A stretch of 57,172 bases of DNA, counting the filler, from Sanchytrium tribonematis (taxonomy: Eukaryota), in NCBI GenBank assembly GCA_018985235.1. It is 4 parts of 4 records of this genome, joined end to end, with 100 filler letters (N's around TTAATTAATTAA, not from the genome) between each part and the next. Parts side by side here need not be neighbours in the genome. Positions count along the whole stretch, not along the records: positions 28,751 to 42,934 come from JADGIG010000173.1; 3 more parts are not named here. The stretch is one strand, 5' to 3'. The position numbers and the translations under genes were made by a program. The notes beneath the pieces were generated by a model. It was not told the origin of the DNA and searched no databases. It saw only the letters and a program-made list of their open reading frames with translations. Shown here piece by piece: positions 3,129 to 46,617 of this stretch (within the stretch, counting starts at the first letter, position 1; the number at the start of each line of letters is the position of its first letter).

Positions 3129-4665
3129 TTAATTTAATGGATTTCCAGATTTGTCCTCTACTAAACCACCTGCGATAGCCTCATCGATCAATATATCTCG
3201 TACTGCTGTCCAAATTTCTTCTCCTGTTGGATTTATCTGAGAGCTTGGAAGTAAAAATCCATACCCAAAAAATGATGGCCTTGGTCGTAACTCAACAACA
3301 TAAGGAAGAGTTCTAAAAACATTTTCTGTTCCATTCCATTTTTGATTGAATACCCATTCAACAGAAGTTCCAGAGGTGAAATACAAGTCATAAGCCGATT
3401 GTGAAGTGTATTGTTTACCGTAAACACTCCTGATAGATTGTCTCATATCATTTCCGACTTCTTTCAACTTTTTTTCCCATACTGTAGGCTCGGAAGTTGA
3501 ACATGGTGGTCTCAGAATTAATTGTGAATAACTATGAAGAGTTAAAAATACATGCACGCCGCCTTGCTTTCTGATGTAATCTGCAATGGCTTTTGTCTCC
3601 GGTTCACTTTCTGGCTTTGTTCCACAAAAAATTTCGGAATTTGGGTCTTTTAATCCAGGAGCTTCATCGCTGCCTTGAGACCAATTTGCGTCAAAATTTC
3701 TGTTCATGTCGACGCCAACTCCGTTGCCTACAGGCCTGCGATTCTTCCTCCATAATCTTTGATTTGTAAAGGTATATGTATATCCGTCTGGGTTAGCAAC
3801 GGGATTAAAAATAAACTCTACTTCCTTCCAGTCAGCATTATTCTTTTTCTTCAAAATGCTCCAAGCAATATATTGCAATGTAGATCCGCCCACCCATTCT
3901 CTATATCAGCAAAATATACCTTGCATGCACCAAACTTTGAATATAAAATTTTTTTCTCTCGCCTGTAAATTCTGGATACGGTTTAATGTGATAAGCATTG
4001 ATACTCCTTTTTTCATAGGACAATCCCATTTCCACTTTTTCCATTACATCTTCGTGAAGTTCTGTCCAAGAATCAAAAAGTTCAAGAATCTCTGAATATT
4101 GGTGGTAATCAGAAAACCATTTTGATGGGTTAAACTCTGCAATGTGCTGCTCATCGGACTGAGATTTAAATTGCTGCTGCAATGGACTTTGCCCTAGCTC
4201 TTCTATCATCTCGTCCACATCAGGTACAAGAATTTGAAAAGTCGATTCTGGTGATAGCTCAGCTATCAAGTCTCCAATTAATTGAAATTGTTCGTAGGAT
4301 ACCATAACATCCGCACTATTGCGAGATAAATGCCAAACATCAAAGTTATAAACATGAATCTGTTGCAGCAACTCTTTAGAGGGCTTCGTGATTCTCAAAA
4401 CTCGCGCAGGACCATCACTTTCTGACTCGTACCATTCTGAAGGTAGCTCGTCTTCATTGTTTTCAAATTCATTCATCAAAGCATCAATAATGGCACCTGA
4501 ATCTGAAGTTTTGTCATTTTCTTGAGAAACGGCTTCTTTACCAAATTTTGAAATCCAACTATTTACATTCTCAATAGCTTTTTGTTTTTTTAGATTTTTT
4601 TGCTTAAACAAGTCTCCTAAATCAAGTTGATCTGAAATTACTAGAACCAAAAGTAAAGTCAACAT
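3129..4665 (-). CDS. Secreted M14 zinc carboxypeptidase with prodomain (one intron)
   Basis: Joins track ORFs 3901-4665 and 3129-3893. Splicing restores HAREW. Also NPDGY, WRKNR, GVDMNRNF, LHSYSQ, VELRP. Confidence 0.93.
3901..3919 (-). other. 19-nt spliceosomal intron
   Basis: GTATATTTTGCTGATATAG interrupts the HxxE zinc motif. Confidence 0.95.
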
Positions 4666-8904: not shown

Positions 8905-9594
8905 TTAGTAAAATGTTGCGATCAGCAAATAAATGAAAACAATTACATTGTTTCTTGACGCCGCTGAAAATAGTCGGTCAAAATCAGGATCGCTAGTGTT
9001 GGTATGCTTGTTTTCATTATGGCTGTATGGAAGATGGTATGATGCGTGATTTTCTTCTTGATTCTCTTTTAGAAAATGAGGTTTCGCTTTAGTCGTAGTT
9101 TTGGTAGTGCGATGATAAGAAATGAAGGCTGGCGCAGTATCCTTATTTTCTTGGGAAGGTGGATACTGACTGTTTGAAGCAGTTGTGTGCCCATTTCCAA
9201 AATCCTGGCACCAATACACGGAGCCTTCACTATCAGTTGCCATGCCAAATCCAACCTCAGTATATGCTGGATTAACCAGATTCTGGAAGTGCCCAGCACT
9301 CGCAACCCAACCTTTCATGACATCTGCTATAGAGTTATAACCTTCTGCAACATTTTCTGCTAAATTGTTCCCATTGTAGCCTCCTAACTTGATTCTTTGA
9401 TCAAAATGGGAGGAGTCGACTGAATGACCCATCATGTGGTATTTTGCCATAGTTTGAGCATACTTCTCAGCCACTGCATTTAATATTGGACTTAATCGCA
9501 ATGGAGGCGCACCAAGCCCTTGACGGACTTGATTGACAAGGTTTAGACCCAGTTGATAATCAAAAGCGGAAATTGCCATCGACAGTATAACCAT
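8905..9594 (-). CDS. Secreted CAP/SCP-domain protein, YkwD-like, with hydrophobic tail
   Basis: VNQVR, MMGH, AENVAEG, GWVASAGHFQNLVN, YWCQDFG. Confidence 0.9.
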   Translation of the reverse strand: MVILSMAISAFDYQLGLNLVNQVRQGLGAPPLRLSPILNAVAEKYAQTMAKYHMMGHSVDSSHFDQRIKLGGYNGNNLAENVAEGYNSIADVMKGWVASAGHFQNLVNPAYTEVGFGMATDSEGSVYWCQDFGNGHTTASNSQYPPSQENKDTAPAFISYHRTTKTTTKAKPHFLKENQEENHASYHLPYSHNENKHTNTSDPDFDRLFSAASRNNVIVFIYLLIATFY

Positions 9595-9767: not shown

Positions 9768-10508
9768 TCAGTATAATAGAATCAACGCAGTTAAAATAAT
9801 GCTCGAGCTTATGGTACTCGAAGAACTGTAGACATATTCTTCTGGTGTCTCTGTAGATTCAGAATACTGCAAGTCATCACATGTAGGAGCGGCAGTGACG
9901 GTTGCTGCAGTATTTGCTGCATTTTCAGTGGATGATGGAGTCGGTTGCGTGGGTTTGACCTCGTAGGAAGAATTTTGAGTCGGACTTGCGTTTTGTTGGT
10001 CAGAGTCTTGATGAGTTGATTCTTGTTTAGTATCTGATTTTGATTTTGGCTGGGATTTTGATTCATTGTGCAATTCTGGAGTTCCATTACCTTTTCCAAA
10101 GTCCTGAGTCCAATACAATCTTCCGGATGAGGATTTGGCATAACCAATCCCAATTTGATTAGAACTAGAGCTTAAAATATTTGCTCTGTGTCCCTCATCA
10201 CCTAGCCATCCATTTACAACGTCTTGAATAGAATTGTATCCTTCCCCTACATTTTCTGCTGTAGGAAAGCCATTATAGCCTTGATTTTCTATACGTTTGC
10301 CAAAATCAGTACCGTCTACAGAGTGTCCCATTTCATCCCGATCTGCTTGAACTTGGGAATATTGAGAAGCTGCCGAGCATAATTCCGGGCTTAAAGACAA
10401 GGGGGATAATCCATTGGCTGCTCTTAATCCATTCACCATACTCAACATAATGTTTGAACTCGCGTCATCTACAGACAATGACATGACCAGAGTGAAAAAT
10501 GATAACAT
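9768..10508 (-). CDS. Secreted CAP/SCP-domain protein, tandem paralog, GPI-like tail
   Basis: VNGLRAANGLSPL, EMGH, AENVGEG, GWLGDEGHRANIL, YWTQDFG; ends SSSSTISSSIILTALILLY. Confidence 0.9.
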   Translation of the reverse strand: MLSFFTLVMSLSVDDASSNIMLSMVNGLRAANGLSPLSLSPELCSAASQYSQVQADRDEMGHSVDGTDFGKRIENQGYNGFPTAENVGEGYNSIQDVVNGWLGDEGHRANILSSSSNQIGIGYAKSSSGRLYWTQDFGKGNGTPELHNESKSQPKSKSDTKQESTHQDSDQQNASPTQNSSYEVKPTQPTPSSTENAANTAATVTAAPTCDDLQYSESTETPEEYVYSSSSTISSSIILTALILLY

Positions 10509-14331: not shown

Positions 14332-14431
14332 NNNNNNNNNNNNNNNNNNNNNNNNNNNNNNNNNNNNNNNNNNNNTTAATTAATTAANNNNNNNNNNNNN
14401 NNNNNNNNNNNNNNNNNNNNNNNNNNNNNNN
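14332..14431. other. Artificial contig linker
   Basis: 44 N + TTAATTAATTAA (stops in six frames) + 44 N = 100 nt. Confidence 0.97.
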
Positions 14432-28650: not shown

Positions 28651-28750
28651 NNNNNNNNNNNNNNNNNNNNNNNNNNNNNNNNNNNNNNNNNNNNTTAATT
28701 AATTAANNNNNNNNNNNNNNNNNNNNNNNNNNNNNNNNNNNNNNNNNNNN
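28651..28750. other. Artificial contig linker
   Basis: 44 N + TTAATTAATTAA + 44 N. Confidence 0.97.
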
Positions 28751-33738: not shown

Positions 33739-34035
33739 ATGAATTCTGAGCCCGCTTTATTTTGTGTGAAATTGAGTCACGTATTAGTGACATATTATGC
33801 TTTATTAATGATTCACGCGTTGTTTGTTTTCACAATGATGTATATCTATGGATTAAATGAAATTGGATTATTTGTAATTCAATTGATTTTTGGGATAGGG
33901 GAGATTACAACTGGGATATTGGGTATATACGATGTATTTATAAAAGATTTAAAACTATTTAAATACATTTATGGGGTATTCACAGTGACGGAATGCTTAT
34001 TAGTTGCACAAATTTATTTTTACTCGATTGGATAA
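33739..34035 (+). CDS. Small hypothetical 3-TM protein
   Basis: ATG preceded by TGAAAC; three hydrophobic segments. Confidence 0.5.
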   Translation: MNSEPALFCVKLSHVLVTYYALLMIHALFVFTMMYIYGLNEIGLFVIQLIFGIGEITTGILGIYDVFIKDLKLFKYIYGVFTVTECLLVAQIYFYSIG

Positions 34036-34111
34036 TAAGAATAAATTTATTTAGCAGGAATGTTGTTGAATCAAAGTGCGTTGCACATTCAGGTACATCC
34101 CAACAAGATAA

Positions 34112-37100
34112 TTAGTTACCATATACTTTTCTAGTCGAATTTCGTATGAACTTCAACTGTGAAATTATTAGAATCTCGCTGCTACTTTTTAATTCTCTAT
34201 AAATAGTGGACCGGGAAATGTATTCTGGAAGATTGCCATTGCAAATATCGGTAAAATGGTCTAAATTCTTGAAGTTTCTATTACAGAAATTGCATTTGAT
34301 TTGAATATTTTCTAATGATTTGGGGGGTAATCTCCCAGTTAGAAACGAGTCAAAGATTTTTTGCAAATGATTCGGGTTTTTCCTTTTAGCCAGTTTTATG
34401 ATTTTATCGTCAGTTTTGAAAACACTTACACGATTGCTTTGTGGTTGGCTGTTCCAATAATTATCCATCAGTATTTGATTCGCTTCCAAAATTGCTTTGC
34501 GATCTTGATCATTGCCATTGTTGATTTGTGTGTACCCAAGGTTTGACAGCTGATCATTAAAGGTTAGAAGTTTAATGCGATATTGATTGTGGATTGATAA
34601 GTAATTGTAGATCATTTGAAAATATCTATATTTTTGTGAATGGAGATTTTTGATGATTTTTGTTCGGTGTTTCTCCAGTTCATCTAAGCCCTCAGCTGTG
34701 TAGTTCTCGATTCCGTAACACAGTATAGGCATTAAGACCCCATTGTAGAATCGAGAATATGAGTTACGAAATTGTAGAAATCGATTTGTCCATTGAATTG
34801 TTGAGGTAGCGAAATTGGCCTTAGCAACTTTATATGCAATATCTGATCGATAATCAATACCCTCACTATTAATAAAAAGACCTAAATACTTTAGATTTGA
34901 CTGTTTTGAGATGGATATGCCGTTATTCAAAGTTATTTCTTCAAGCAAAGGGTCCGATGAAACGAATTGAAATTTTGATTGATTTACCAGGAATCCATGA
35001 GACTGTAATTGATCGGTGACGCGATTAGTTGTGCTAATCAAAGTATTTAAAGACCAGGAGACTACAAATATATCGTCTGCATAAGCAAAGATTTTTCTGT
35101 TCTCAGAATTCGGTATTTCCGCCAAAATCCTATCAATAACAAATGAGAAGATTAAAGGGCTTAATGTACCACCCTGTGGGGTGCCTCTACACATTAGAAT
35201 CTCATTATTATTAGAATCCCTTTTAAGAGTGAAACGTTGATCACAGATTATATTTCGCAATACGTTTAAATCATGGTCGGGCAATATAGATTGTAGCTGA
35301 TTAAAGACGTCAGTATGTTTGATGGTATCAAAAGCAGTACTGAGATCCAATGCAAGGCAGTGAGCCTGACCATAAACTCTGTGGCATCTTTTTATTTCAT
35401 CGAGAACTGCATGTATTTGAGTAGAACAGCTTCGTTTCTGGCAAAATCCGTGTTGTCTTAGACTTGGTTGTAGCTTGAGGCGATAATGGTGATAATAAAT
35501 AACCTGTTGATAGACTTTGAAAGCAATGCTGATAAGAGAAATTGGACGATATCTACTTGAATTTAAATCGTCTCCACTTTTGAAGACTTCTATGACCTGA
35601 GAAATGCTCCATTCATATGGGACAATCTGATTTAAGTAGCATTGGAGTAAAAGAGAATGCAATATTTCATAGCCACTTTTGGGGAGATATTTGTAAACCA
35701 GAACAGGAATGGAATCTCCACTAGCCTTCTTGCTATTTACAGTTTTGAACATGTGAGTTATTCTTTCTAAAGTAAATAAATTATTTGTCTCTTCTAGCAT
35801 GTTCTGTGTCATTGCTGTAGGTCTATAGGGCCAGATTAGAGCGTCACTCGAGCTAAAGTGATTTGTATGATAATGTATTGCATCGTGAATATTTGATTTT
35901 AGAAATTGATGCTTTCTCTGTTGTCGTAATTTACAAAGTTCTATATATGCAGATGATTGGTCAATATTCACTTTGTCAAGATATTTGTTAAATTCAAAAT
36001 TCTTTTGGGTTTTTCTTGCTACTTTGAGATTCTTTTGAGCCATTTTAATCTTTCGCTTGAGATTCGTGCGTCTTTCTCCTGAGCATCGTCTGCCTTTCAT
36101 ATGTCGCTTAAATCTTTTAATTTTGGTAGATAGATTCAAGATCCGGTCATCATACTCTGTAGTGAGTAGTCTGTCTCTGAAAGATGTAATTGGGAGAACT
36201 TTTCGCGCAGCGTCTACCACTGATAATTTAAATTTATTCCATAAACTATTGCAATCAAGATCCGAAATGTTGGGAAGGAACGATTCAAAGTTTTGATTTA
36301 ATTTTCTAACAAATTGCTCTCTATAGTTGAGATCAGTTTTAATAAGGGAGTAATTGATATTTCGCAGTACTAAGAGAGGATTATCTAAATGAAATTTAAA
36401 GAGAATAGGATAATGATCAGAATTTGTTTGATTGTTTCTTAAGACATGAATAGAGTCAATTTTGTAAGCAAGGCTGTTATGAATCCAGACCTGATCAAAG
36501 CAATTAAGAGAGGACACCATCGTGCTATCACAAGGTGTATTTTTCAAAAGGTAGCATTTGTCAGACATATAAGATTCAAAATTTCTTCCGTGTCTATCAA
36601 ACTCCACTTGGGCACTGGGGCATTTCTGATTGAAATCTCCAACAAACAGAGCTTTCTTATTAAATCCAATTTCCATTTCGGTTTTAATAGATTCTAGATT
36701 GCCACGATATCTCGGAGGTAGATAATTAAAGCTGTAGAAGTCACTATTGATTCTGATTGTGTGGGAAAAGAGGCTATCCTGGCTAACTAGAGAGATATCT
36801 TCTATTTCATTCAATATCATAATACACTGACGATCGCATTCTAGTTGATGTTTAAATTTATAGATTTTGTATCCTTTAATAAATGGGTCCTTTTTCACCC
36901 TGTATTCAGTAAGATGCATTATGGAAGGATGATAGGTTTCAATTAGGCGTTTCAATTCAGAGTCTAAGCAACCATTTCTCTGGCCACGGCAGTTGTAGCT
37001 CACAATGTCAAGAGAGGATAATCTATCTGCAATGGGGCAGTCAGTGGTAACAAGATCTTCAAAGGATCCACCCAATTGCCGAGGCTGAATGTGTATATTC

Positions 37101-38044
37101 TTGAAATCACTATCAATAGGGGTATCACTTGAGATATTATGAAGATTTGAGAATAGCTTATGCTCTTTTGGATTGAATTGAATATTTTTAGAGCATAGAT
37201 GACTGATAATATCTTGGAAAGAGCAAGGAGTCTTAATATAAATTGGAGTCGTTCTACCATCAAGCTTGTGTATCCAAATCAGATTCTCTTTTGGTGGATT
37301 TGTAATAGATTTGTAGATTGGATTTGGAATTAATTGATTATTGATTGATTGAATAACAGCCAATCCAGCTTTAGGGGCAAGAGCAGAGTCAACAGATACA
37401 TTTATTTTAATATCCTTCGTTGCCTTTGTCCATCTCTTCAGTGCCCCTAAGTGATTTAGAAGATACTTCTTTTTATCTGAGTCATCACAAAGAATGACGA
37501 CCTCAATAATTTGAGAGTCTCTGCAGCTAGCCAGTTTTGTATCAAGCGAGATATCTAATCTTTCATTCTCTCTTGTGACCTTTTTAAGACAATCAATATC
37601 AACATTATCCAACGATACTGGGAGAAGATTTTCTAATTCATCACATAATGTAGCCATATCCGATTTCACAAGGACATTACTGCATTCTTGATCCACATCC
37701 CCAGTTTCCTTGTTAACAAGCACCCATTTAATCATGTATTCAACTGGTTTAAATAATGAATCTGCAGTCTTATCCTGTAGATTTCCAGCAGATTGGGATT
37801 CAATGCGGTCTTTATAACTACCCTTTAAGGAGATAATTTGATCCATAATGTCATTTTTCACATGAAATAATGCTTTCATGTTATAGTTAACCATATAGCC
37901 TAAACAAGTGTGATACAGATGATCAAAGAGCTGATAAAATAATACTTTAGAGATTACATATCTATCATCATTAAAATCATGGCTATTACTCAATTTCAAG
38001 CAGTTCTCATGAGCTTTTTGGATTGATTTATCAAAAGTAAACAA
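34112..38044 (-). CDS. Retrotransposon polyprotein: N-terminal region, ubiquitin-like domain (..RQLGG), APE endonuclease, reverse transcriptase, CCHC
   Basis: APE: IVSYNCRG, LTEY, YLPP, VGDFN, FDQVW, SDHYPI. RT: YRPISL, QHGF, LDLSTAFDTI, GTPQGGTLSPLIF, YADD, YLG. Tail CNFC..DHFTDIC. First ATG at 37894. Confidence 0.93.
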   Translation of the reverse strand: MFTFDKSIQKAHENCLKLSNSHDFNDDRYVISKVLFYQLFDHLYHTCLGYMVNYNMKALFHVKNDIMDQIISLKGSYKDRIESQSAGNLQDKTADSLFKPVEYMIKWVLVNKETGDVDQECSNVLVKSDMATLCDELENLLPVSLDNVDIDCLKKVTRENERLDISLDTKLASCRDSQIIEVVILCDDSDKKKYLLNHLGALKRWTKATKDIKINVSVDSALAPKAGLAVIQSINNQLIPNPIYKSITNPPKENLIWIHKLDGRTTPIYIKTPCSFQDIISHLCSKNIQFNPKEHKLFSNLHNISSDTPIDSDFKNIHIQPRQLGGSFEDLVTTDCPIADRLSSLDIVSYNCRGQRNGCLDSELKRLIETYHPSIMHLTEYRVKKDPFIKGYKIYKFKHQLECDRQCIMILNEIEDISLVSQDSLFSHTIRINSDFYSFNYLPPRYRGNLESIKTEMEIGFNKKALFVGDFNQKCPSAQVEFDRHGRNFESYMSDKCYLLKNTPCDSTMVSSLNCFDQVWIHNSLAYKIDSIHVLRNNQTNSDHYPILFKFHLDNPLLVLRNINYSLIKTDLNYREQFVRKLNQNFESFLPNISDLDCNSLWNKFKLSVVDAARKVLPITSFRDRLLTTEYDDRILNLSTKIKRFKRHMKGRRCSGERRTNLKRKIKMAQKNLKVARKTQKNFEFNKYLDKVNIDQSSAYIELCKLRQQRKHQFLKSNIHDAIHYHTNHFSSSDALIWPYRPTAMTQNMLEETNNLFTLERITHMFKTVNSKKASGDSIPVLVYKYLPKSGYEILHSLLLQCYLNQIVPYEWSISQVIEVFKSGDDLNSSRYRPISLISIAFKVYQQVIYYHHYRLKLQPSLRQHGFCQKRSCSTQIHAVLDEIKRCHRVYGQAHCLALDLSTAFDTIKHTDVFNQLQSILPDHDLNVLRNIICDQRFTLKRDSNNNEILMCRGTPQGGTLSPLIFSFVIDRILAEIPNSENRKIFAYADDIFVVSWSLNTLISTTNRVTDQLQSHGFLVNQSKFQFVSSDPLLEEITLNNGISISKQSNLKYLGLFINSEGIDYRSDIAYKVAKANFATSTIQWTNRFLQFRNSYSRFYNGVLMPILCYGIENYTAEGLDELEKHRTKIIKNLHSQKYRYFQMIYNYLSIHNQYRIKLLTFNDQLSNLGYTQINNGNDQDRKAILEANQILMDNYWNSQPQSNRVSVFKTDDKIIKLAKRKNPNHLQKIFDSFLTGRLPPKSLENIQIKCNFCNRNFKNLDHFTDICNGNLPEYISRSTIYRELKSSSEILIISQLKFIRNSTRKVYGN

Positions 38045-39218
38045 TTATGGCCCGTCACCAATCAAAACTTGTTCTGCTTGCTTATTGTTCAATTTTTGCA
38101 TACCAAGATCTTCAAATGCATCGATTAACAATTTCATTGACTTACCTTTTTCTGCAAGCACTGAAATCAGTAGATATTTTGATTTAGCTTTTGTATTCTT
38201 AATTTGCTTTACAGCTGGTACAATGTAGTCATAGGATTTAATCAATGAGTAAATCTGATCCCTATTTACACCAATAGTATCTAAAAAGAGAAATGTGGCG
38301 AATTTTAATTCTTTTAGATATTGATTGGAAACAATCTTTTTTAGTTCATTTTTGTCAGTAAAATGTTTAAGGAGCCCATAAAGTGAAAGAAAGCATCTTT
38401 AAAGTGCTAAGATTTTTTTCAAGAGTAGAGGCTCTACAAACACCAAGTAAATCAGCGATATATTTAGTAGTTTTAGGGACATTACTAATAATTCTATTCA
38501 AAGCAACGATACGCACAATAGGGGCAGTAGAAACATATTTCTGATTCCAGTTCTCTTCATTTTCACTTGTAAAGGTTAGTGGAGAGCAAATTTGTTTGAA
38601 AATCATTTCTTTTAATTCTTGAATGGATTTGGATTTTAAAATCTTACAGCATTGAATATCGTTATTCATGTGTGATTGGGACAGAATATAGTCGCTTTCA
38701 CAACCAATATGAGTCACACCATAAATAAGTTTTTTAATGACAATTTTGCTTGGTTTTTCGTGAAAAGCATTAGGGCAAAAGAGTTGAAAACCAGATTCTA
38801 ACAAATTTGATAAAACATAATCTAAGTGAGAACCATTCTGAGTGGTTTGAAAATACTTTTCTTCAACTTGATTTGTGAAAGTGTCAAGTTTCGATGGCGC
38901 ATTTTTTGCCTCAGATTCGCCATCTGATGTTGCCATTACATCACTCTCCAAATTTGTAATTGAGCATTTGCTGCTTGGTATATCGCTGCCAAAGTCATTC
39001 ATAGAGATAATTTCTTTATAGTTCTTTCTCGGGATGTTTCGTAGTTCAATTTTAACGACATTTTCTTTAAATTTACCAGAAGAATGATCAACTTGATCAA
39101 GTTGCGAAATTTCATGATGCAAAATGGAGTCCCTGCGTTGGATTCAATGAGGAATTAACAGAAGCAGGATTAGTGAGTATATCTGTAATCGGATATGGAA
39201 TTGGATTAAATTTAACAT
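38045..39218 (-). pseudogene. Interrupted upstream reading frames, probable ORF1 or N-terminal part of the element
   Basis: ATG 39218, in-frame TGA 39146-39144, frame open to 38367; a +1 frame open 38398-38048; TAA 38047-38045 in frame with the RT ORF. Confidence 0.45.
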
Positions 39219-39390
39219 GGTATTATAAGCAATACTTGAAAAATAAAGCAAAAGTGATTCCAATTGAAAAATAAAACAATTTCAAGGAGTAAACGCGCAA
39301 CTTTTTATTCTTCAATTGCATTTAACATGAGCAATGACATCGCGTCACCCAAAATAACGTCTAGATAGTTGGCATATTTTGGAAATAACA

Positions 39391-39412: not shown

Positions 39413-40516
39413 ATGTTATACTTTGTTTTTGCTTTACTTTTGACCATCATGGTGACGGGTGTGGGCTTTTTAATGTTCTATCTCATGCGTCACCACATTG
39501 TCATCAAATACAGACGACCAGAATTAGTACTTGTAGAACAAATCTTTCTACTCATCACAGCGTGTTTAGAAACTACTAAAATGGACACCATTTCCCAAGA
39601 AATTCCCTGTAAATCCATCTCTATCCCAGTCAGTATCTGTGGATTAACCAGCTTAGCATTCATCATGGCCAGAATCACGTATGTTTATGGATATTTAGTA
39701 TCAGAAAAAGAAGGTAAGATTTCATTCCAATTTATGACGCGTTTCTTTTGGGATAAAGAATTCAAATTAAAGAAATTAAACTTTATTTTGTTGTTGGGTG
39801 TGTGGAATGTAGCCAATATTTTATTCAATATCTTTGGATATGCGTCTATTCAAGAAAATCAAACTTTAGATGCCATTTGTGACAGATTCCCTCAAACAAT
39901 CACTTATATTGCCAATTATCTAGTGGGTTTATTCATGATTCTATTCAGTATCCAAGTGATTCGATTGCGCGTCACAGATAATATTGGAATGACGTATGAA
40001 TTTCTTTCTGTCACATTTTTTCTCATTTTTTGTGCCGTGTTTGTAGAATTCTACAATGGCGTCAATCCATCCAATAAAATAGCATACGAGTACATGGTCT
40101 ACACAGAAACCATGATTTCCATGTTTTTTGGATTATATTTCCCAATGATTTGTTTGGTATTCCATAAAAATAAAATCCAAAATTACGAATTAATGAGTTG
40201 TGATAAATTAAATCCAAATACCAATTGGACGCCAATCTTAAAAACAGCTCAAAAATTCTTTTGTGAAGAAAATGTTTTATTTTGTATGAGATATTTTGAT
40301 TATAAAGAACACAAAATTGGATTTGAGAATTTAAATTCACAATTTTTAATGGAGTCAAGTCCATTAGAATTGAATATATCTAGTGAAATGCGTGCTAAAG
40401 TGCAAGATGCACAAGAACGTGAAAATGCAATTGATGAGATTTATGAGCATATTACTTTATTGATTAAAGACAATATTATGCCATATTTAAACAAGAATAA
40501 AGAATCTACTGTCTAA
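39413..40516 (+). CDS. 7TM-RGS protein (GprK/AtRGS1-type architecture)
   Basis: About seven hydrophobic helices, then RGS motifs FCEENVLF and FLMESSPLELNISS. Confidence 0.85.
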   Translation: MLYFVFALLLTIMVTGVGFLMFYLMRHHIVIKYRRPELVLVEQIFLLITACLETTKMDTISQEIPCKSISIPVSICGLTSLAFIMARITYVYGYLVSEKEGKISFQFMTRFFWDKEFKLKKLNFILLLGVWNVANILFNIFGYASIQENQTLDAICDRFPQTITYIANYLVGLFMILFSIQVIRLRVTDNIGMTYEFLSVTFFLIFCAVFVEFYNGVNPSNKIAYEYMVYTETMISMFFGLYFPMICLVFHKNKIQNYELMSCDKLNPNTNWTPILKTAQKFFCEENVLFCMRYFDYKEHKIGFENLNSQFLMESSPLELNISSEMRAKVQDAQERENAIDEIYEHITLLIKDNIMPYLNKNKESTV

Positions 40517-42934: not shown

Positions 42935-43034
42935 NNNNNNNNNNNNNNNNNNNNNNNNNNNNNNNNNNNNNNNNNNNNTTAATTAATTAANNNNNNNNNN
43001 NNNNNNNNNNNNNNNNNNNNNNNNNNNNNNNNNN
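42935..43034. other. Artificial contig linker
   Basis: 44 N + TTAATTAATTAA + 44 N. Confidence 0.97.
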
Positions 43035-43976: not shown

Positions 43977-46617
43977 ATGCTGAGATTAGTGCGCAGTCTT
44001 CACTTTGGATTAAGATCTGAGACCAAAACATATTGGGAGAGAAGAGTTGCTTTGACACCTGATGCTTGCAAGCAATTAATAGAAAATGGCCACATTATTA
44101 GTGTGGAAGGGTCACAAACAAGAGTCTTTCCAAATGAAGCATATTCTAAAATAGGTGCTAAAATTACGGACAATTTGCAAGATTGCGATGTTATAATTGG
44201 AATTAAAGAGGTCCCACTGCATGAGATTATTCCAGATAAGCATTATTTTATTTTTAGTCATACTCACAAAGCACAAGAATATAATATGCCAATGCTGAGA
44301 ACTTTTATGCATCGCAATTGCACTCTAACTGATTATGAATTATTGACGCAGGTAACTGGAAAAGATCAAGGGAAAAGGTTGGTTCAATTTGGGTTATTTG
44401 CTGGGTATGCAGGAGCTATAAATAGTTTACAAACTTTAGGGAAGAGACTTCTTGGTCTCGGGTTTTGGACCCCTTTTATGTGGTTGAGTCAAGCCCATCA
44501 GTATTCCCGCTTAGAGAACATTAGATTAGATATTGAAAGAGTGGGCGATTATATTAAAACTCATGGACTTCCAAAAGAATTACTTCCTTTTAATGTTATA
44601 TTTACTGGGAAGGGTAATGTCAGCCATGGTGCAATGTCAATTTTTCAGCATCTTCCACATGTTTTTGTGCTGCCAGAAGAGCTGGAAAATCTACCAAAAG
44701 ACCCACATACCATATATATCTGTACTGTTGATTCAAGCGAATATATTATTCACAAACAAGGAAGCGATTTTGACAAAAGTGACTATTATGAAAATCCTCA
44801 TCATTATAAGTCGATTTTTCACAAGAAGATCGCGCCTCATGCTTCAATGTTGATTACTGGACATTATTGGGACCCCACTTTTCCGAGGTTGATAACCATG
44901 GATCAGGCATTGCAGCTAATGCCTTTTTGGAAACAAAACTTAAAAATGCTAACGCTAGGCGATATCACATGTGACCCTAATGGCTCGATAGAATTTATGC
45001 CCCGGGCTTGCACAATCGACGACCCTTACTTTATTTTTGATATTGAAAGAAAAATTGAACATAAAGAACTTAATAGTGAAGGAGTAGCAATCATGAGCGT
45101 TGATATTTTGCCTTCAGAAATTCCTAAAGAATCTAGCGAATATTTCAGCTCAAAATTACTTCCATTTCTTCAAGACCTAAAGAAGCATAAAAGTATTATT
45201 GACAACGCAACTATAGTTAAAGCAGGAAAGGTCGCTCCAGAATATGACTATTTGAATGAAAAGGTTCATTCACAAGGTAAAAACAAGAATGTCGCTGTCT
45301 TCGGAAGTGGGATGGTCGTTCAGCCTCTTGTGGAATACTTGTTGAGAGATTCTAAAAATTTGATCACACTAGCCACGAATCAAGTTAAGGAAGCAAACAT
45401 CGTGAAGTTAAATATAAAAAAATATGATTTAAAATTAGGAGATAGAATAACAATAATGAACGTCGATGTTAAAAATGACAAGTTGGTGGACAAAGTCATT
45501 TCTGAGAGCGATATTGCTGTGAGTCTCGTTCCTGCAGTATTTCATGTTGCAATTGCCAAGTCATGCCTACGTCAGAGGAAAAATTTGGTCACGGCCAGTT
45601 ACATTTCTGAAGAAATGCAGAAACTTGACGCCGAGGCAAAGTCAAAAAATTTGGTATTTCTCAATGAAATGGGATTGGATCCTGGAATAGATTTGACTTC
45701 ATCCAAACAGTTTATAGATGACGTCTTAACAATGGGTGGGAAAATCAGACATTTTGAGAGTTGGTGTGGTGGGCTACCTGCCCCTGAATTTAGCAATATA
45801 CCTTTAGGATATAAGTTTAGTTGGAGTCCTAAAGCTGTTTTAACAGCAAGTAAAAATTCAGCATTATACAAATATAATGGCGAGACTAGAAAAATATCAA
45901 GTGATAATCTTTTAAAAAACCCTTTCAAAGTGAATATTTTCAAAGGCTTTTCATTTGAGGGAATTCCAAATCGCGATTCCCTGAAATATGCAAAACCTTA
46001 TGGTCTTGACCTGGACACATTGAGTACCATGTTTCGTGGAACGCTGAGGTACGCTGGGTTCTGCAATTCTTTAGCAGCATTTAGAGATCTTGGCCTCCTG
46101 GATGACGTAAATCTACAGAGGCATGATTCATTTTATAGCATAATGTCGGCAAAAGTAGGAGATGTTGAATCGTTTGTTGTCAAAAATTATGGGGAATCAG
46201 TATTGACTGACATGGAAGAGTATTTCAAATTGATTTAGAATAGGGCTTCTATCAAAAACTTCACTGAACCTCGATGGCAGTAGGATCGATATGTTAGCTG
46301 ACTTTTTGTTCCAAAAGCTATCTTACAAAAAAGGTGAGAGAGATATGGTTGCCATGCATCACATTTATCATGTAGATTGGCCATCCAAAAAGTCAGAAGT
46401 CGTCCATTCAAGTTATATTCGATATGGCGACAACAAAGCGTCCGCAATGGCATATACAGTTGGAATCCCGTGCGGTATTGCTACCCAACTAATATTAGAT
46501 CGCAAAATTAATACCAGTGGTGTTGTGGCCCCACTTTCTAAAGAAATTTACGAACCTGTTAACAATGAGCTATATAGAGAAAATATCAGGTTTAGTGAAA
46601 GAATTATTCAAAGTTGA
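43977..46617 (+). CDS. AASS: Bifunctional lysine-ketoglutarate reductase / saccharopine dehydrogenase (one intron)
   Basis: WERRVALTP, FSHTHKAQ, DITCDPNGSIEF, VTASY, NEMGLDPGID, YKFSWSP, RGTLRY; last exon SAMAYTVGIP. Confidence 0.95.
46220..46238 (+). other. 19-nt spliceosomal intron
   Basis: GTATTTCAAATTGATTTAG; joins the two AASS track ORFs. Confidence 0.93.

Follow-up and report, generated by a model that had tools for sequence, protein, structure and literature searches.

How a long interspersed nuclear element (LINE) with just one open reading frame (ORF) might part its replicative enzyme from the protein upstream is the question raised by one retrotransposon copy of Sanchytrium tribonematis, which lies in JADGIG010000173.1 within a stretch of 57,172 nucleotides (hereafter the window, i.e., the whole of the DNA analysed; assembly GCA_018985235.1). 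A sequence-only reading of the window had proposed that residues 255-326 (37282-37067) of a 1310-aa ORF resemble ubiquitin and end in Gly-Gly (GG) about 20 residues ahead of an apurinic/apyrimidinic endonuclease-like (APE) domain, and that proteases of the host or of the element cut after this GG to release APE together with the reverse transcriptase (RT). It named fold prediction, GG conservation, and RT phylogeny as ways of checking the proposal, and these were followed here; of the outcomes it gave as refuting, the lack of a predicted beta-grasp fold and a GG that varies among related elements were both looked for, and neither was observed. The residues read as quoted and terminate in GG, and the APE motif begins at residue 349. 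Our analysis supports a ubiquitin fold for this ubiquitin-like domain (Ubl2) and, by analogy with known substrates, makes it probable that a host deubiquitinase (DUB) cleaves after the GG, releasing APE-RT.

Searches with the single Ubl2 sequence gave one weak match in Pfam (RBD, E = 0.12) and one in the PDB (an engineered ubiquitin variant, E = 0.32), and both matched entries have the ubiquitin fold. A profile built from nine family sequences matched ubiquitin over its full length in the PDB, with E of about 1e-3 for linear di-ubiquitin and 0.0002-0.1 for mono-ubiquitin fusions, and among the 60 matches listed for it nearly all, RTs aside, were ubiquitin or its fusions; a five-sequence profile was weaker against ubiquitin (E = 0.03-0.9). 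Two AlphaFold2 runs, whose alignments were partly shared, predicted a beta-grasp topology for Ubl2, with block values of the predicted local distance difference test (pLDDT) of 73-87 and 77-82. When compared with ubiquitin-family structures, the model reached best Z scores of 10.0-10.2 with a root-mean-square deviation of 1.8 Å over 70 residues, so that the ubiquitin likeness first seen by eye is borne out by both profile and model. Ubiquitin, ISG15, FAT10, BAG6, and Dsk2 all lay within about one Z unit of each other, and the comparison thus supports the fold without deciding on a particular Ubl family. Fragments of the BVDV polyprotein were also among the structural matches. In its core, Ubl2 is about 11-15% identical to ubiquitin. 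Pfam, scanned up to E = 10 with the window domain and with eight relatives as whole proteins, returned no ubiquitin, NEDD8, SUMO, Sde2-UBL, or FUBI family match, and an Atlas look-up with the Ubl2 of one relative found nothing scoring at least 0.9, the top match having 0.88 and a cluster resembling SUMO 0.85.

Conservation was analysed in the nine sequences that cover the site, namely the window copy, P0021, and seven proteins from a cluster-representative search, P0002 and P0005 being left out as duplicates; the eight relatives consist of four S. tribonematis EukProt proteins and four sequences from ENA or Logan contigs. The GG stands in ubiquitin's register and in identical columns in the window copy and in all eight relatives. 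G325 and G326 are the sole Ubl2 columns invariant in all nine rows, and one Thr of Ubl2 is kept in the six rows that reach its column, in a core with a mean pairwise identity of 21% (6-45%), compared with 37% for APE in the same nine sequences. In ubiquitin numbering, position 69 of the tail is hydrophobic and position 72 is Arg or Lys in 9/9, position 73 is hydrophobic in 6/9, and position 74 is Arg in 2/9. The pattern hydrophobic-x-hydrophobic-x-x-[RK]-x-x-GG, which was defined after the tails had been viewed, occurs once per protein in all nine, whereas other RT proteins, with 131,507 residues in total, contain it a single time. The GG lies at a domain boundary, ahead of a low-confidence linker of variable length, and is separated from the first Asn of APE by 24 residues in the window copy and by 22-91 in the family. 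It is followed by Ser in three sequences, by Phe in three, by Ala, Thr, or Asn in the others, and by Pro in none, so that the N-terminal Ser foreseen for the released protein in the sequence-only reading is a property of this copy and not of the family. In the subclade formed by P0021, P0025, and P0036, the four residues directly after GG are identical, with Phe first, in a linker that is otherwise variable, which suggests a role for the N-terminus that a cut would create.

In a quick RT tree built from the 68 rows with the best scores, the 11 family rows lay beyond one branch (length 1.07; Shimodaira-Hasegawa-like approximate likelihood-ratio support of 100), and each of the family's two deep subclades has members with Ubl2 and its GG; the domain thus likely predates their split. 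The remaining 57 rows include no named LINE-clade references. Beyond the family, a single-sequence search with the Ubl2 and APE region recovered the window protein alone among 923 candidates, and an alignment search found no additional Ubl-bearing protein among 7995 scored candidates. A metagenome scan yielded 80 loci, all of them distant RTs (21-33% identity); three (L004, L038, and L039) have RT-bearing open frames of 1957, 1676, and 2682 codons without a Ubl profile match. Profiles of Ubl2 and of a second domain, Ubl1, matched none of these 80 loci and, among 169 proteins, none outside the family. The tail pattern was found in none of the outgroup proteins searched for a GG before APE, a weak search with two and then five proteins that had enough upstream sequence and in which some APE starts were miscalled.

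The 1310-aa ORF is open as the sequence-only reading had it (1260 aa when counted from the first ATG of the frame 34112-38044), but it makes up just the 3' portion of one longer ORF that is broken in this copy, as shown by an unbroken relative and by a high-depth contig. The contigs compared come from one sequencing run (X1) that contains the window DNA and is possibly its source, and are therefore not independent of it. Upstream, an open frame (frame A) extends over 38367-39143, with the main ATG at 39002, and stops where the high-depth contig carries 14 extra letters (behind 38367); the TAA at 38047-38045 is a sense codon in the same contig. The 14 letters, in which no stop was read by eye, put the frames in register, so that the ORF starting with the ATG at 39002 has 1634 codons, and GG would occupy residues 649-650 of such an unbroken copy. 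P0021, a near-twin of P0005, is a single ORF of 1725 aa from the start through the zinc knuckle. The stop and the frameshift arose by damage to this copy or by mistakes in the assembly, and are present in no listed contig of run X1; programmed frameshifting combined with stop readthrough was rejected because the high-depth contig and P0021 are unbroken. The family has a single ORF made up of an ORF1-like region, Ubl1 without GG, Ubl2 with GG, linker, APE, RT, and zinc knuckle.

The upstream region is likely ORF1-like, a name given to it by position only. Ubl1 and Ubl2 are about 65 residues apart, and the two together can be aligned with entries for di-ubiquitin, ISG15, and FAT10. Ubl1 provides an inner contrast, the predicted fold being kept twice and the GG only where Ubl2 meets APE. 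About 420 residues lie upstream of Ubl1, with Cys and His residues that are conserved among the three sequences aligned there. Further upstream, the stop of a small ORF overlaps the main start codon, and translation might be set by stop-restart.

The element is an APE-type non-LTR retrotransposon, with APE N-terminal to RT in one ORF, a target-site duplication, and a C-terminal CCHC knuckle of the kind seen in many LINE clades. Neither long terminal repeats (LTR) nor inverted repeats were found at its ends among the repeats listed for the window. The 3' end is short and A/T-rich, without poly(A), and a second 3' flank in run X1 is likewise A/T-rich. A 2A motif (of the DxExNPGP type) before APE was found in none of 15 family proteins; in an unrelated RT protein, P0037, a motif resembling 2A was seen by eye close to the N-terminus.

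Since the family has one ORF, its parts need to be separated. We propose that a host DUB, which would be an enzyme of the ubiquitin-specific protease (USP) type, cuts after the GG of Ubl2 and frees APE-RT from the upstream, likely ORF1-like, protein. The predicted products would be about 650 aa and 984 aa long in an unbroken copy, and the new N-terminal residue would tune the half-life of APE-RT, so that a one-ORF element keeps its RT scarce. N-terminal Phe is a destabilising residue, and its presence after GG in 3/9 sequences, all of one subclade, might, as a speculation, be a way of keeping RT scarce.

Such a cut is likely because the conserved positions are those which the enzymes cutting Sde2 and FUBI read. 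Human SDE2 is less than 20% identical to ubiquitin and is cut after GG by USP5, and by Ubp5/Ubp15 in S. pombe; cleavage was blocked or impaired in L70A, R73A, and GG mutants, and the N-terminal Lys exposed by the cut drives N-end-rule turnover (PMC13572447). The positions kept in 9/9 family sequences are those whose mutation blocks SDE2 cleavage (L70, R73, and GG; PMC13572447). Ubl2 and the Ubl of Sde2 are both divergent and have equivalents of L69, R72, and GG, which are needed for the cut in SDE2 and are read from the sequence here; unlike Sde2, a host splicing factor whose Ubl is N-terminal and whose motif is GGKGG (PMC13572447), the element has an internal Ubl and a variable residue after GG, and the Sde2 model of Pfam matched none of the family proteins scanned. 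FUBI is 36% identical to ubiquitin, has Leu at the position of Arg74, and is described as cut by USP36 and USP16 and not by most USPs (PMC10611586). The FUBI-eS30 precursor (PMC10611586, PMC8354635) resembles the window copy in being a Ubl fusion in which Leu takes the place of Arg74; in contrast to this ribosomal fusion, Ubl2 is far more divergent and lies within a mobile element.

Several observations weigh against cleavage. At the position of ubiquitin Leu73, the tail has Gln in the window copy and Gly in two relatives, and the equivalent L74A substitution in SDE2 halved cleavage (PMC13572447). Arg74 is kept in just two of the nine sequences, and its substitution in FUBI excludes most USPs (PMC10611586). 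The structural matches of Ubl2 share 6-17% identity with it, and among them, with tied Z, are the Ubl domains of BAG6 and Dsk2, which are not cleaved. Six further family proteins are without the tail; five of them start downstream of the site, and in the sixth, P0004, which is a broken copy or a Ubl-less variant, APE is preceded by about 75 residues that contain neither GG nor Ubl. Its 75 residues fall within the family's linker range, yet exceed the 63 of P0028, from the same subclade. A single species accounts for four of the eight relatives, several of which are broken. Finally, no recognisable ORF1 domain was found in the N-terminal region by Pfam, PDB profile, or Atlas (best 0.76, none scoring at least 0.9).

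It is unlikely that Ubl2 instead remains attached and acts as a decoy, or as a docking site, for RNA, DUBs, p97 adaptors, or proteasome receptors, with its GG kept for binding. Uncleaved Ubl domains do match at tied Z, including the RNA-binding Ubl of SF3A1 (rank 23), tail positions 73 and 74 drift, and the second beta-grasp is kept without GG, so that the fold itself would be of value to the element. However, conservation is highest at GG and at the basic residue 72 whereas the surface diverges, and, to our knowledge, integral Ubl domains generally do not retain GG. As for RNA, RGG is present in just 2/9 and is then followed by acidic or Pro/Ala-rich sequence, unlike an RNA-binding tail. There is also only a slim chance that the cut mainly serves to expose GG for E1 activation, the upstream protein being conjugated as a modifier that, as in ISG15 or FAT10, ends in two Ubl domains. 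The tandem beta-grasp matches di-ubiquitin, ISG15, and FAT10 entries and residue 72, which has a role in E1 recognition, is basic in 9/9, but E1 requires a conserved Ubl surface, the core is about 11-15% identical to ubiquitin, and the two Ubl domains lie about 65 residues apart rather than abutting. Conjugation has been observed for FUBI (PMC10611586); for the upstream product of the element it is speculative.

We consider it very unlikely that a protease encoded in the element's N-terminal region cuts after GG in cis. The conserved Cys and His residues upstream of Ubl1 would suit such an enzyme, and other transposons bear Ulp1 and OTU protease domains (PMC2836005, PMC6431247), but neither Pfam (P0021 and P0036), a PDB profile, nor Atlas gave a match to a protease family, including a Ubl protease, in this region, which was not folded. 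That the domain is a mere passenger, a relic of captured ubiquitin with no current role, is hardly credible: the window copy and several relatives are broken, as a relic might be, but a relic would lose GG as quickly as its core, and GG is invariant at 21% core identity in both subclades. Cleavage by a host DUB thus remains the reading we prefer. A wider version of it, in which the long-branch LINEs of sanchytrids have replaced ORF1 and ORF2 with a DUB-processed polyprotein, the residue after GG sets RT half-life, and the released tandem-Ubl ORF1-like protein is itself conjugated as a transposon-encoded modifier, is distinctly unlikely as a whole.

The insertion is supported by an empty site in run X1, where one contig connects 34027 with 39138, six letters being assignable to either side. 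Haplotypes or strains thus differ in whether they have the insertion, an indication that the element has moved recently. The empty allele, which carries many substitutions relative to the window, re-forms in frame a single small hydrophobic host ORF; a Pfam scan of this interrupted ORF gave no match. Further copies of the element are indicated by loose contig ends at six places within it or at its edge and by variant contigs in the same run, and read depth is raised over the element, although the depth value is not a copy number. The coordinates of all features are collected in Table 1.

Table 1. Features of the retrotransposon copy and of its insertion site, in window positions.
Feature	Position	Strand	Basis
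Whole non-LTR retrotransposon copy, 5104 bp	34034..39137	-	Empty-site contig; contigs of the run break at 34032 and 39139
Target-site duplication (6 bp), 3' side of element	34028..34033	.	Sequence comparison and empty-site contig
Target-site duplication (6 bp), 5' side of element	39138..39143	.	Sequence comparison and empty-site contig
Upstream ORF in 5' leader, 38 codons	38999..39115	-	Stop overlaps main ATG (39002)
N-terminal part of long ORF (frame A), ORF1-like region	38367..39002	-	Matches P0005 (E = 5e-4); alignable with P0021 and P0036
Middle part of ORF1-like region (frame B)	38045..38398	-	30% identity to P0005, E = 2e-9; ends in TAA
Open 3' part of ORF, 1310 codons (P0001)	34112..38044	-	Stop-to-stop frame; co-linear with P0005 over 1087 columns
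Ubl1, predicted beta-grasp without GG (residues 101-186)	37487..37744	-	AlphaFold2 block pLDDT 68-84, weaker in second run; aligned in 5/5 rows reaching it
Ubl2, predicted ubiquitin-fold domain closing with GG (residues 252-326)	37067..37291	-	Profile search, AlphaFold2, structure comparison
Gly-Gly (residues 325-326), predicted cleavage site	37067..37072	-	Invariant in 9/9
Flexible linker from GG to APE	37010..37066	-	pLDDT <50
APE endonuclease, catalytic-type motifs present	36386..37009	-	Pfam Exo_endo_phos_2, E = 3e-6; TRAS1 endonuclease best fold match, Z 22.5; Foldseek E = 5e-12
Reverse transcriptase, YADD at residue 988	34877..35560	-	Pfam RVT_1, E = 1e-33
C-terminal zinc knuckle, C-x2-C-x8-H-x4-C	34241..34294	-	Motif; visible too in P0003, P0004, and P0021
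3' UTR (untranslated region), 78 nt	34034..34111	-	Short A/T-rich tail at end, no poly(A)
5' part of small hydrophobic host ORF interrupted by insertion	33739..34035	+	In-frame remainder at 39140-39274; codon within the duplicated 6 bp common to both halves

The element sits wholly within one contig of the window, in surroundings of gene-dense eukaryotic DNA with 33-40% G+C and housekeeping Pfam families. Linkers of N at 14332-14431, 28651-28750, and 42935-43034, with stops in all frames, separate contigs of about 14.3 kb, and any ORF that reaches into a linker is an artefact. The standard code reads host genes through whole Pfam domains, and an alternative code was therefore rejected. A zinc carboxypeptidase (3129-4665, minus strand) and a lysine-ketoglutarate reductase/saccharopine dehydrogenase (43977-46617, plus strand) are each split across two ORFs by small introns or frameshifts, and CAP (cysteine-rich secretory) proteins form a tandem pair at 8905-9594 and 9768-10508 (minus strand). 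Head to head with the element, at 39413-40516 (plus strand), lies the gene of a multi-pass membrane protein whose C-terminal part weakly matches RGS (E = 0.022).

With regard to known systems, the element shares with 2A-bearing LINEs a single ORF and a separation signal upstream of APE-RT (PMC3708506, PMC3894237). Here, the signal would be a folded Ubl with GG that is read by a protease after translation rather than ribosome skipping, and about 650 aa lie upstream of it, whereas most 2A elements are described as being without ORF1. In cytopathic pestiviruses, an inserted ubiquitin lets host ubiquitin hydrolases release NS3 (PMC8310069), and the LINE would likewise be a parasite whose polyprotein releases a replicative enzyme by means of these hydrolases. 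Unlike the pestivirus insertions, in which cellular ubiquitin was captured by individual strains (PMC8310069), Ubl2 is old, diverged, and fixed family-wide. Ginger and Helitron/Helentron elements, with Ulp1, OTU, or C19 proteases (PMC2836005, PMC6431247), are likewise mobile elements engaging the ubiquitin system, but they carry the protease whereas this LINE carries a substrate-like domain. The sequence-only reading knew of no description of this architecture for LINEs, and our literature search found no LINE with a ubiquitin-like domain; supplements, Repbase Reports, and most subscription journals were outside its coverage, and an earlier mention of such an element is possible.

How one LINE RNA yields abundant ORF1 protein but scarce ORF2 protein is a standing question. 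Having two ORFs is one known solution. The 2A peptide is another (PMC3894237). If the present reading is true, cutting at a ubiquitin-like domain would make a third, a host deubiquitinase would directly control retrotransposition, perhaps together with N-degron turnover, and the Ubl2 domains of these elements would form a family of natural, highly divergent DUB substrates alongside FUBI and Sde2.

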